Shown: piece after piece, positions 990 through 4,597 of the stretch
How positions within the stretch are numbered: position 1 is the stretch's first letter
How the letters are laid out: each line of letters starts with the position of its first letter
IMG/VR virus record: IMGVR_UViG_2734482566_000007
Strand: one strand, 5' to 3'
Length of the DNA: 4,597 bases
Source: a virus
Taxonomy: Duplodnaviria > Heunggongvirae > Uroviricota > Caudoviricetes
Program-made: the position numbers and the translations under genes
Notes under the pieces: generated by a model
Told to the model about the DNA's origin: nothing
The model's input: only the letters and a program-made list of their open reading frames with translations
The model's database searches: none

Positions 990-1145
990 TTACTTCCTGG
1001 ATTCGTAGTCTACGAAGACAGCGACCTCCGTCTGGCCGGTTCGGATTCGTACCTCACAGAGGTCTTTCCTCGTTACCAGTGCCGTCACTATGACGGTTAA
1101 ACAGATGACGATCAGGGCGATTAACATCGCCTTTTGCTGCTTCAT
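990..1145 (-). CDS. hok: Hok/Gef family type I toxin, 51 aa (MKQQKAMLIALIVICLTVIVTALVTRKDLCEVRIRTGQTEVAVFVDYESRK); closest in my recollection to HokD/RelF
   Basis: ATG at 1145-1143 with AGGAG 9 nt upstream; stop TAA 992-990. Single transmembrane helix followed by the conserved RK.LCE.R....EVA..Y Hok signature. The 70-aa ORF in the track is an in-frame upstream extension and is unlikely to be the real start. Confidence 0.85.
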   Translation of the reverse strand: MKQQKAMLIALIVICLTVIVTALVTRKDLCEVRIRTGQTEVAVFVDYESRK

Positions 1146-1321
1146 AGCCTGCTTCTCCTTGCCTTTCGGCATGTAAGAGGCTAACCTACATGTGCAAAGC
1201 ATGAAATTGGCCTCAGATTAATGTTAAGCGTCTTGCCGGACGCGTAATGTTAACTGGGGCTTTTCTCTATCTGCCTTTTGGTGTTCATGCCTGAAGCAGA
1301 TAGCCTCAAGCACCCGCAGTC

Positions 1322-1372: not shown

Positions 1373-2059
1373 TCACTCCTTCTCTTCTTTACCGTAGTGG
1401 AGTTGACCAATTTTGATAAGAGGGCGTCCCTGAGATTTGCGGTGTAGATTGGTATCGCGCAGAGAATACACACAGCCACAATATTCCTGCTGATAGAATT
1501 TTTCGCGCTTGCTGATTTCAATCATACGGGACGAGCCGCCCTGCTTGCGCCAGTTATAATCCCAGTACACCATGCCCGGATAATGCGCGACGGCTCGCCG
1601 CCCACAGTCGTTAACCTGCTGCATATTTTTCCAGCGTGAAATGCCCAGTGAACTGCTGATCACACTGAAACCATTTTCAGCGGCGTACAGCGCTGTCCGC
1701 TCAAAACGCATGTCAAAACACATGGTGCAACGGATCCCTCGTTCGGGCTCCCATTCCATTCCTTTGGCTCGTTCAAACCAGTTGTCTGTGTCGTAATCAG
1801 CATCAATAAACGGCACGCCGTGTTGTTCAGCAAAGCGAATATTCTCATCCTTACGAATTAAATACTCTTTCTGAGGATGAATGTTCGGGTTGTAGAAAAA
1901 GATGGTGTAGTCGATTCCCGAGGCCTGAAGCGCCTCCATCACCTCACCGGAACATGGAGCACAGCAAGAGTGCAGTAGTAGTTTGTTTGCCCCGTTTGGG
2001 AGCTCCAATTTGGGCCGTTTGAAATCAGCAACTGTCATAAATATGTTTATTGGGGTCAT
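1373..2059 (-). CDS. queH: Epoxyqueuosine reductase QueH (DUF208 family), 228 aa (221 aa if translation starts at Met8)
   Basis: N-terminal [12 protein letters not shown] cysteine motif and C-terminal EYCGCVYS motif are characteristic of DUF208/QueH. ATG at 2059-2057, stop TGA 1375-1373. No clear Shine-Dalgarno before either candidate start. Confidence 0.75.
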
Positions 2060-2206: not shown

Positions 2207-2620
2207 TTATTCAGTTCTGGATTTTGTCGCCCTGCGTATCCGCGCTTTCGCGTTACGCTCAATCTGTATCAGCTTTTCTATATTTCTCCGCCTTTCCTGT
2301 TCCTCCTGGCGCAATAGCCTTACATCATCTGCCAGTCTGGTTTCTCTTTTTGCCACAGAGAGCATCCAGTCAAACGGCTCCACAACCGCACCGCAGATTT
2401 TACAGCGGACCTGACGCTCTTTTTCGTCAACCCGTACAGAGGCGTGATGGCAATATGGTCTTTCCGATGGCTCATAAAGAAAATTAACCTGATTACGAGG
2501 GTCATCCTCTTTTACCGGAAATAAAACGATATTGCTTAACTCATCTTCTGGTTTTATTTCCATGCTCCTCTCCTTTGATGCGAATGCCAGCGGTAATTGA
2601 AGCCTGATAGCTAATTTCAT
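2207..2620 (-). CDS. Hypothetical Zn-ribbon-like protein with a basic coiled-coil C-terminus, 137 aa (118 aa if translation starts at the internal ATG at 2563)
   Basis: ATG 2620-2618 directly abuts the TGA (2623-2621) of the upstream gene, suggesting translational coupling; AGGAGG lies 11 nt upstream. The internal ATG at 2563 has a stronger SD (aaAGGAGAGGAGcATG). Putative metal ligands in ...PYCHHASVRVDEKERQVRCKICG...; C-terminus is Arg/Glu-rich. Confidence 0.6.
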   Translation of the reverse strand: MKLAIRLQLPLAFASKERSMEIKPEDELSNIVLFPVKEDDPRNQVNFLYEPSERPYCHHASVRVDEKERQVRCKICGAVVEPFDWMLSVAKRETRLADDVRLLRQEEQERRRNIEKLIQIERNAKARIRRATKSRTE

Positions 2621-3043
2621 TCACAGTATCGCCTCCTGAAAATTACCCTGATAGAAAGCCAGTACACGCTGCATAGCTTCGCTCTTCCGGCACTCGCGAC
2701 AGATTATATTCAGGCGCCTGTCGTAGCGGCGTATTTCTCCGTCAGGTAATGACCAGATAAGGTCCGGATCAACAACAACCGGTTTCCTCACCTTTACTCT
2801 CGAGAGTTTTTTGCGGGCGCTTTGCCAGTCCTTGCGAGCCTGTTCAGACGGGAATAAGCCGTAGCCAGAATTATATACATCACCACTTGCGACCAGTTCT
2901 ATGCATAAGCGACCGACAGACGCACGACTGATACCTGTTTCATCTGACAACTGCCGAATCGTGACCCGACCGTCCTGATGCACGAGTTCCACAATTCGCG
3001 TCTTCAGTTCTTCCCGCTGTTCGGGAGTAAAAGGTTTCGCCAT
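2621..3043 (-). CDS. Ren-like winged-HTH protein, 140 aa (resembles lambda Ren in the HTH and C-terminal ...RECRKSEAMQRVLAFY... segments, with an internal insertion of about 45 aa)
   Basis: ATG 3043-3041 with AGGAGG about 6 nt upstream; stop TGA 2623-2621. Lies immediately downstream of the DnaC-like gene, the same position as ren after P in lambda. HTH segment VTIRQLSDETGISRASVGRL. The Ren assignment is from a recalled sequence and needs a search to confirm. Confidence 0.65.
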   Translation of the reverse strand: MAKPFTPEQREELKTRIVELVHQDGRVTIRQLSDETGISRASVGRLCIELVASGDVYNSGYGLFPSEQARKDWQSARKKLSRVKVRKPVVVDPDLIWSLPDGEIRRYDRRLNIICRECRKSEAMQRVLAFYQGNFQEAIL

Positions 3044-3057
3044 AAATCCTCCTGAAA

Positions 3058-3819
3058 CTACTTAACAACCCTCGAATGGCTAACATTCGGACGCCAGCTC
3101 TCCCAGTTAAAATTCACCCAGCGCCCGCCGTTCATGACCATGCGATCCATCACCCGCTCGCCGAGCAATGTTTTCATCACCTCATAGTTCAGGTGATGAA
3201 AACATTGCTCGGCGAGCGGGTGATGGATCGCATGGTCATGAACGGCGGGCGCTGGGTGAATTTTAACNNNNNNNNNNNNNNNNNNNNNNNNNNNNNNNNN
3301 NNNNNNNNNNNNNNNNNNNNNNNNNNNNNNNNNNNNNNNNNNNNNNNNNNNNNNNNNNNNNNNNNNNNNNNNNNNNNNNNNNNNNNNNNNNNNNNNNNNN
3401 NNNNNNNNNNNNNNNNNNNNNNNNNNNNNNNNNNNNNNNNNNNNNNNNNNNNNNNNGATAGCTGCCGCTAAGTGATTCTTCCCGGTACCAGGTTTTCCGC
3501 TGAACGCAAAATTTGTACACCCGGTCATCAGTTCATCGGCGATGGATTTCGCCTGGCTTAACGCGTATCGCTGGCCGTCGTTCTGCACCTGGTAATTCGC
3601 AAACGAGCATTTACGGTGCAACGGCTGGATGCCTGAGCGATTCAGAATTTTTTCCACCCGCAACTGGCGATTCAGGCGGTTGATCTCCTCGCTACGTTTC
3701 TGGCCTTCAGCAAGTTGCCACTCGCGCCACTCCGCTACCGTTCTGAATGGGGCGGTTACATGTGGCGGGGTCAGTCGGCGGATGCGTTCCAGAACGCCGC
3801 CTGTCGCAATATTTTTCAT
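3058..3819 (-). CDS. DnaC-like replicative helicase loader (AAA+ ATPase), coding sequence interrupted by an assembly gap and a fold-back artifact
   Basis: ATG 3819-3817. N-terminal part closely resembles E. coli DnaC / prophage YdaV-type proteins, including Walker A FSGKPGTGKNHLAAAI; genuine C-terminus ...NYEVMKTLLGERVMDRMVMNGGRWVNFNWESWRPNV... Residues between are N-masked (3268-3456) or come from an inverted duplicate (3191-3267). Confidence 0.85.
   Translation of the reverse strand: MKNIATGGVLERIRRLTPPHVTAPFRTVAEWREWQLAEGQKRSEEINRLNRQLRVEKILNRSGIQPLHRKCSFANYQVQNDGQRYALSQAKSIADELMTGCTNFAFSGKPGTGKNHLAAAIXXXXXXXXXXXXXXXXXXXXXXXXXXXXXXXXXXXXXXXXXXXXXXXXXXXXXXXXXXXXXXXVKIHPAPAVHDHAIHHPLAEQCFHHLNYEVMKTLLGERVMDRMVMNGGRWVNFNWESWRPNVSHSRVVK
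3106..3267. repeat. Perfect 77-bp inverted duplication (arms 3106-3182 and 3191-3267, 8-bp spacer) ending exactly at the N gap; probable fold-back assembly artifact
   Basis: The reverse complement of 3191-3267 is identical to 3106-3182. The left arm encodes the conserved DnaC C-terminus; the right arm gives non-homologous residues (VKIHPAPAVHDHAIHHPLAEQCFHHL) where the AAA+ core should be. Confidence 0.8.
3268..3456. other. Assembly or scaffold gap, 189 N
   Basis: Run of N. Gap plus artifact arm totals 266 nt, close to the roughly 260 nt expected for the missing DnaC-like core, so the reading frame is fortuitously preserved. Confidence 0.95.
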
Positions 3820-4174
3820 GGTCCGTTACCCCCTGAAGCCTGGCGGGATCGCACTGTCCGGCAACGAGACGGTGTTAACCTGTCGGAGCAACGTCTCAGG
3901 CCGAACACCTTTCGGCGCGAACAGGCCCTGGTATTCATTGGCGATGCTGTGTCGAATCACCTGCTCAGGTGTAAAACCCTGCTGACGGAATTTTTCCAGT
4001 TCCCGTATCGCCCCGTTAGCGCCCTGCTCCGTTCGAATCGGTTTTCGCAATGCCTGTCTGAACCGGACCCACTCATGCCAGAGTGTTTCCGGCAACCAAT
4101 CGGGCAGCTCAATAGCCTCCGGCTCGAATTTTTTAGACGCTCGTTTTTGGCGAGGGGGAGATCAGTATTTAGAT

Positions 4175-4194
4175 CTTCCTCTTCCTCTTCCTCT
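4175..4194. repeat. (CTTCCT)3 hexamer tandem repeat encoding the poly-Glu linker of the replication initiator
   Basis: Plus 4175-4192 is three exact CTTCCT units plus CT, translating on the minus strand as (GAG GAA)3. Confidence 0.8.
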
Positions 4195-4217
4195 GGTAAC
4201 GCTTTTTGATCCGTTTG

Positions 4218-4238
4218 TGTAACGCTGGCAGCGTTACC
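4218..4238. repeat. Dyad element A: TGTAACGC-TGGCA-GCGTTACC inside the initiator gene
   Basis: 8-bp arms are exact reverse complements. Near-identical to element C at 4425-4445. Confidence 0.6.
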
Positions 4239-4263
4239 TTTTCGTTTCAGTTCGCGTATTTTT

Positions 4264-4283
4264 GTTACTCGCTCGTTTGTAAC
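4264..4283. repeat. Dyad element B: GTTAC-N10-GTAAC inside the initiator gene, flanked by T-rich tracts
   Basis: Same GTAAC/GTTAC core as elements A and C, in the opposite arm order. Confidence 0.45.
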
Positions 4284-4424
4284 CGCCCGTTTTTTAGAGC
4301 TTTTTCCGTTATGACGTTCAAAGTTAGGTAGAGAAAGCCCTCCGTCATTTTCGACCAGCCATCCAACCTGAATTAACGCATCAGCAAAACCAGACATAAA
4401 AGTGATGCGATCTATTGCACTTTT

Positions 4425-4445
4425 TGTAACGCCGCGAGCGTTACA
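4425..4445. repeat. Dyad element C: TGTAACGC-CGCGA-GCGTTACA inside the initiator gene
   Basis: 8-bp arms are exact reverse complements. Shares the TGTAACGC...GCGTTAC consensus with element A about 207 bp away. Confidence 0.6.
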
Positions 4446-4597
4446 ATCTGCATTACCGTCTATCATTTGTTGATCCGCCCATGCCCAGAAGCGAATAACC
4501 TGAGGTAGCCTGAGTTTAACGGACACTCCTTCCTGAAATAGAATGGCATCAGAAGGAGCTAATAATGAGCAGAAAAACCCAACGTTACTCTAAAGAG

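Follow-up and report, generated by a model that had tools for sequence, protein, structure and literature searches.

Does a DnaT-like replication initiator gene that lies in two different reading frames of a draft phage contig reflect an error in the sequence, two genes that are normally separate, or a gene that has truly been inactivated? The stretch analysed here (the window; 4,597 nt) is the entire contig CWZE01000219.1 of assembly GCA_001252235.1. The ORF listing agreed with the first-pass annotation, which had been made from the letters of the window, in that the minus-strand ORF 3957..4526 ended at the stop at 3957, that frame B of the same strand was open from 4161, just past TGA 4162-4164, to 3826, and that the plus strand carried T6 (4129-4134), T5 (4144-4148) and G5 (4154-4158) runs. 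That annotation had attributed the split to a single-base indel in one of these runs, most likely a sequencing error, and had kept a true frameshift in a replication-defective, cryptic prophage as the lesser alternative.

Over 3,194 nt, the reverse complement of the window matched CP010829.1 with 100% identity, and one 2-nt gap was the sole difference in another 1,143 nt. CP010829.1 is the finished chromosome of Shigella sonnei FORC_011 (PMC5447701), and its copy of the locus is called L008 below. Judging from this identity and from the shared insertion sequence junctions described later, the contig almost certainly originated from S. sonnei or a very close relative. The minus strand of the window was a lambdoid or Rac-type early region with the following features.

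3826-4526, minus strand: split replication initiator (ORFs and profiles)
3058..3819, minus strand: ydaV/dnaC-like helicase loader gene, the downstream partner of the initiator (PRK12377, E=1.9e-93)
2621-3043, minus strand: DUF977 gene
2207-2620, minus strand: gene for a 137-aa zinc-ribbon protein
1373-2059, minus strand: queH (epoxyqueuosine reductase), apparently intact
990-1202, minus strand: hok-family toxin gene
also in the window, minus strand: rem, then a truncated DUF1367 gene
1-108: right end of a second IS600, in the same orientation as the IS600 at 4501..4597, cutting the DUF1367 gene

The ydaV-like gene began at 3819, directly after the initiator stop (last base 3826; the spacing is given as 4 bases). 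The initiator was thus found directly upstream of a DnaC-like loader gene, and the same order was seen in two E. coli genomes with an intact gene (L001 and L002). Within ydaV, a perfect 77-nt inverted repeat (3106-3182 and 3191-3267, with an 8-nt loop) abutted a 189-N gap at 3268-3456. Since the inverted copy is absent from the finished S. sonnei genome, where ydaV is an intact gene of 248 aa (as it is in L009 and others), 3191-3456 is a gap-closing or assembly artefact that puts 262 bases in place of 247 real ones. The ydaV of the window was disrupted only by the N run 3268-3456 and the artefactual inverted copy 3191-3267.

Both frames of the split gene proved to be parts of one initiator, as the first-pass annotation had proposed. 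In profile searches, the N-terminal frame matched positions 47-157 of PHROG 2509 'replication initiation protein' (E=1.6e-43) and the C-terminal frame matched positions 193-277 of the same profile (E=3.9e-08) as well as phrog_6451 'primosomal protein' (E=1.7e-29). An intact homolog covered positions 1-277 of 277 of PHROG 2509 (E=1.2e-89), which is a full-length family match. The DnaT-like label was supported by a PDB sequence search, in which residues 170-262 of the intact protein aligned to the DnaT C-terminal domain (2ru8, E=9.5e-05; 9zbt, E=3.2e-04), and the alignment to 2ru8 closed on the common tail NTVSxPDSxIPPGFRG. Neither the two fragments nor the intact protein matched any Pfam family, even at E<=10, and DUF1376 was likewise absent. 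The protein is not an ortholog of DnaT (primosomal protein I), an assignment ruled out by the NCBIfam DnaT equivalog NF002770, which scored 16-17 bits against a cut-off of 201 with a match confined to the last 19 residues. The features of the gene and its upstream flank are as follows.

3957..4500, minus strand: frame A, initiator coding sequence from codon 36 to a deletion junction near 4160
3826..4161, minus strand: frame B, C-terminal third of the initiator, with the DnaT-like domain at ~3829-4107 (residues 170-262 of the intact protein) and the stop at 3826-3828
4153..4159, minus strand: surviving copy of the direct repeat TCCCCCT at the deletion junction (alignments), including the G5 run 4154-4158
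4176..4193, minus strand: poly-Glu linker repeat (GAGGAA)3, an in-frame hexanucleotide whose copy number differs between related loci (alignment)
4290..4295, minus strand: A6 tract on the gene strand, T6 on the plus strand (alignment)
4498..4500, minus strand: 3-bp target-site duplication GGT (ACC on the plus strand) within initiator codons 35-36
4501..4597, plus strand: left end of IS600 (IS3 family), whose inverted repeat begins TGAGGTAGCC at 4501
ATG 4565 to the contig end, plus strand: first 11 codons of IS600 orfA, MSRKTQRYSKE (sequence)

Past the junction, frame A ran through ~64 out-of-frame codons to the stop 3957-3959. The ORF from GTG 4526 comprised 189 aa, and the version from ATG 4466 comprised 169 aa. 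A single uninterrupted frame for the full protein was absent from the window copy, which had lost 10 bp at codons 149-153 and carried IS600 at codons 35-36. The window locus is therefore a member of the YdaU-type (PHROG 2509) family by descent, yet a pseudogene.

The lesion that separates the two frames was identified by comparison with complete E. coli genomes, 681 of which covered at least 80% of the query in a megablast search; in the best matches, 702 query bases paired with 712 subject bases. In the two genomes inspected (L001 and L002), the gene was one CDS of 789 nt encoding 262 aa, annotated as 'hypothetical protein' in one and as 'phage replication initiator YdaU family protein' in the other. 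The alignment showed GATC-TCCCCCT-AAA-TCCCCCT-CGCC in the intact genes versus GATC-TCCCCCT-CGCC in the window. The missing 10 bp, TCCCCCTAAA, consist of one copy of the 7-bp direct repeat TCCCCCT and the 3-bp spacer AAA; the intact form at window 4153-4163 would read GATCTCCCCCTAAATCCCCCTCGCC, and the junction of the deleted form reads GATCTCCCCCTCGCC, the additional TCCCCCTAAA being absent. Owing to the repeat, the position of the deletion is resolved to within 4152-4160, in the acidic linker that immediately precedes the DnaT-like domain. Loss of one repeat copy plus the spacer is the classic footprint of replication slippage, and the deletion probably arose by slippage between the two repeat copies.

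Aligning both frames to intact homologs, a check suggested together with the first-pass annotation, thus placed the frame switch inside the overlap 4095-4161 where it had been expected, with the surviving repeat holding the G5 run. The lesion itself was of another kind than the proposed homopolymer indel: the T6, T5 and G5 runs had the same lengths in the window as in the intact homologs, and the sole gap relative to the intact homolog in the homologous part was the 10 bp. A single-base insertion would also restore the frame, as had been supposed, because -10 is equivalent to -1 modulo 3. When the 10 bp were put back, one frame resulted, in which 227 of the 227 residues downstream of the IS junction were identical to those of the intact homolog L001. 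This identity is far beyond chance. The predicted continuous protein of roughly 230 aa agrees with the length left after the IS600 cut, whereas the intact gene encodes 262 aa.

The 89-aa product of frame B had been called as a gene of its own on eight public contigs, and the seven loci returned were aligned with the window. The 10-bp deletion was present in 7 of these 8 loci (window included), and the remaining one, L007, had a +1 G insertion. The identical deletion was thus found in L006, L008, L009, L010, L011 and L012, six loci in six assemblies, whose accession prefixes suggest several submitters and one of which, L008, is a finished chromosome. This recurrence across different assemblies, a finished chromosome among them, shows that the deletion is not a read or assembly error. 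With an 80-mer across the junction, the deleted form was found in 0 of the 551 complete E. coli genomes that carry the segment; 549 of the genomes fell in the 80-90% identity band and the other two in the 90-95% band, the listed matches having 88.9% identity, which corresponds to the 10-bp gap, and all 549 full-length matches kept the 10 bp. An exact-match scan for the deletion junction in a genome-contig collection gave no match; in this collection, Shigella is presumably merged into the E. coli species representative. The gene was contiguous at 96% identity in phages recorded as isolates, for example vB_EcoS-673R7, where it is annotated as 'DNA replication protein O'. Because the intact homologs are contiguous and six further loci share the deletion, a single gene is the normal state of the two parts, and the deletion genuinely marks a lineage.

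Upstream, a further interruption at codons 35-36, which the first-pass annotation had missed, was observed. Homology to the intact initiator gene ended at window 4500, and the remaining stretch, 4501-4597, had matches in more than 3,000 E. coli genomes, a single genome containing as many as 43, with the listed matches annotated as 'IS3-like element IS600 family transposase'. It was also 100% identical to three IS copies in L008. As 4501-4597 belongs to IS600, of which it forms the left end, the GTG at 4526 that looked like a start codon is part of the element. In L008, GGGAAGGT, IS600 and GGTTATTCGC follow one another; the element there is 1264 bp long with GGT on both sides, and beyond it the first 107-108 nt of the initiator gene are intact. 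This is a simple IS600 insertion with target duplication. Apparent IS600-plus-flank matches in E. coli (H31 and H34) were rejected, as they were unrelated insertion sites. The IS600 junction was common to the window, L008, L009 and L012, while the 5' end was uninterrupted in L006, L010 and L011 despite the deletion; the deletion therefore came first and IS600 second. The 4.6-kb contig is bounded by IS600 at both ends because short-read assemblers break at repeated IS copies.

In L008, the element around the gene comprised, in its first part, IS copies, DUF1391, a cI-like repressor, cro and a 101-aa ydaT; in its middle, IS600, the split initiator, ydaV, DUF977, the 137-aa protein, queH, hok and rem; and, at its end, the truncated DUF1367 gene, IS600 and a 160-aa integrase fragment, beyond which lay a gene with ABC-transporter domains that was taken as host. 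No lysis, packaging, head/capsid or tail genes were called in this list from the immunity region to the integrase fragment. The surrounding prophage in the finished genome is a ~9-kb remnant, and since no late or structural genes were called in it, the prophage is cryptic regardless of the state of the initiator. The evidence shows the true inactivating mutation in a cryptic prophage that the first-pass annotation had kept as its minority alternative.

These data bear on three other readings of the split. The preference for a sequencing or assembly error, that is, a single-base miscall in the T6, T5 or G5 run of the draft that splits an intact gene, could appeal to the fact that this contig has a real assembly artefact ~700 bp away (the N run and inverted duplicate at 3191-3456) and that the homopolymer 4290-4295 in the gene differs from that of the nearest relatives. 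However, the three runs equal those of the intact homologs in length, the sole length difference in the overlap being a 10-bp deletion that recurs in assemblies other than this one, and IS600 cuts the gene too, so that an error of this kind is extremely unlikely. A functional arrangement, with two genes that are ordinarily distinct or with programmed ribosomal frameshifting between the parts, is just as hard to credit. Although the 89-aa C-terminal ORF is called as its own gene in eight public contigs, every one of the eight loci aligned bears a disrupting lesion (the deletion in seven and +1 G in L007). The matches listed among the 551 E. coli genomes, none of which has the deleted form, are annotated as ordinary CDSs, and over 500 E. 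coli genomes, as well as phages, have a contiguous gene, contrary to the separate genes that would have spoken against the first-pass reading. Moreover, the full-length PHROG 2509 profile spans both parts, and TTG 4095 has no Shine-Dalgarno sequence at a usable distance, the nearest GGAGG lying ~22 nt upstream (by inspection). As for programmed frameshifting, which would entail a switch conserved among functional homologs, the homologs are contiguous and 0 of the 551 E. coli genomes carry the deletion.

A further reading accepts the deletion as real and holds that a new role, such as blocking the replication of incoming phages or the host primosome, has preserved either the truncated N-terminal product or the DnaT-like fragment. 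The neighbours ydaV, DUF977, queH and hok are intact in the remnant, and the DnaT-like frame has no further lesions in 7 of the 7 deleted loci, as such retention might predict; however, the sequences are so nearly identical that they give no signal of selection. Against a new role, the upstream part has gained further frameshifts in the A tract (A8 and A9, of which A9 is considered again below) and an IS insertion, as neutral decay predicts, and there is no plausible translation start ahead of the C-terminal fragment. We consider this reading very unlikely, if slightly less so than the two preceding ones.

Based on these results, the replication initiator gene of a lambdoid or Rac-type prophage has very probably become a true pseudogene here, inactivated more than once, first by the 10-bp deletion and then by the IS600 insertion. 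In the intact YdaU-type initiator, which is encoded immediately upstream of the DnaC-like loader, an N-terminal domain with a presumed role in origin binding is followed by an acidic linker rich in Glu and then by the DnaT-like domain. Removal of one TCCCCCT and AAA at codons 149-153 put the DnaT-like domain out of frame. IS600 subsequently entered codons 35-36, with duplication of GGT, in a sub-lineage that includes the window contig and S. sonnei FORC_011; this cut the rest of the gene off from its first 107 nt and probably also from the upstream promoter. Presumably, no functional initiator can be made from such a locus. Since the prophage is a short IS-riddled remnant in which no late genes were called, the loss of the initiator would have had no further consequence. 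One point that counts against this explanation is that at least one homopolymer call within the gene (A6 in the window versus A8 in the closest relatives) is uncertain.

IS600 is one of five IS elements that have expanded in all Shigella species (PMC7373316), and at least 199 pseudogenes, caused by IS insertions or by mutations of other kinds, are present in every Shigella reference genome (Hawkey et al. 2020, PMC7373316). The window locus shows both kinds of lesion and is a typical instance of IS-driven pseudogene formation in Shigella, with nothing notably different about it; it is an ordinary pseudogene of an already known kind, a product of routine Shigella genome decay. Its significance beyond annotation is little. 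The locus should be annotated as a single pseudogene (phage replication initiator, frameshifted, IS600-interrupted) in place of two short ORFs, and any 'correction' of the split as an error in a homopolymer should be avoided. In this S. sonnei gene, two routes of decay can be followed neatly on a small scale, a short direct-repeat deletion and, after it, an IS600 insertion. The case also illustrates that comparison of independent assemblies and intact homologs can resolve such a split in a draft contig with no recourse to reads.

The linker region was variable among the related loci. The A tract at 4290-4295 was A6 in the window and in the intact genes, A8 in L008, L009, L011 and L012, and A9 in L006; apart from the N gap, nothing else distinguished the window from CP010829.1, and in an 80-mer search all 40 listed E. 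coli matches were ungapped across it. Because all three loci that share the IS junction of the window have A8, the A6 of the window is either a true -2 change or a consensus error. It is the one homopolymer in doubt; the first-pass annotation had not named this run, and the main conclusion is unaffected by it. The loci L006, L010 and L011 figured in the copy-number variation of (GAGGAA)n, and L010 had a very long run adjoining Ns, probably another assembly artefact. In the 80-mer search with (GAGGAA)n, most of the listed matches were full length and a few ended early, near the end of the repeat in the query.

L007 (UARW01000010.1) kept the 10 bp and had its +1 G insertion (GCCGGGAGG) ~90 nt upstream of the 89-aa ORF, so that the same gene was split into ORFs of 170 aa and 89 aa; its ydaV was split as well. 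L007 is thus an independent case of inactivation and decay of the same replication module. The A6 tract, (GAGGAA)n and the 7-bp direct repeat place three slippage-prone elements within ~140 bp, and the frameshifting changes in the linker among the eight loci amount to at least three independent ones (the 10-bp deletion, A8 and the +1 G of L007), the A9 and (GAGGAA)n copy-number changes being in frame. The linker might accordingly be imagined as a mutational hotspot that recurrently switches off prophage replication, or the surviving DnaT-like fragment as exapted, and such a hotspot, if real, would help domesticate prophages. This seems very improbable to us; the idea of a contingency locus was rejected after the A-tract and (GAGGAA)n searches of E. 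coli, with the 40 listed A-tract matches ungapped, and in the junction search all 549 full-length matches kept the 10 bp.

The intact protein is predicted to be the initiator of a lambda O/P-like module, in which origin binding would fall to the N-terminal domain, and the DnaT-like C-terminal domain, along with the adjacent DnaC-like YdaV, would engage the machinery for helicase loading. The protein of L001 was 96% identical to YdaU of 'Escherichia phage Rac' (MN652886.1) and to 'DNA replication protein O' of vB_EcoS-673R7. YdaU-type initiator genes occupy the same position as the intact E. coli homologs, between cro/ydaT and the dnaC-like ydaV; compared with such intact initiators, the window copy is broken by the 10-bp deletion and IS600. 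As with lambda O and P (or a DnaC-like protein), the initiator gene lies directly upstream of the helicase-loader gene, which suggests a functional analogy, and phrog_678 'replication initiation O-like' matched residues 77-236 (E=7.3e-26). Unlike lambda O, the C-terminal domain is DnaT-like: the C-terminal domain of E. coli DnaT (residues 92-179) aligns with initiator residues 170-262, and the tail is nearly identical. Unlike E. coli DnaT, the N-terminal two-thirds of the initiator are unrelated.

Three exact 19-bp palindromes, GTAACGC-N5-GCGTTAC, were found at L001 1366-1384, just upstream of the intact start, and at window 4426-4444 and 4219-4237, within the gene, as against ~0.1 expected by chance. 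These palindromes are candidates for sites of initiator binding or for the origin. Lambda O contains iterons within its gene, and the dyad repeats in and upstream of the present gene are reminiscent of them; unlike those of lambda O, the three palindromes are ~200 bp apart and not clustered, and mark a candidate origin only. In S. sonnei, IS600 separates the upstream palindrome from the other two.

Regarding the other genes of the remnant, hok and queH were called in L008 too, and L006 had a shorter QueH call and no Hok call. A 4.4-kb segment of the remnant lies between directly oriented IS600 copies, and such bracketing could promote deletion of the segment.
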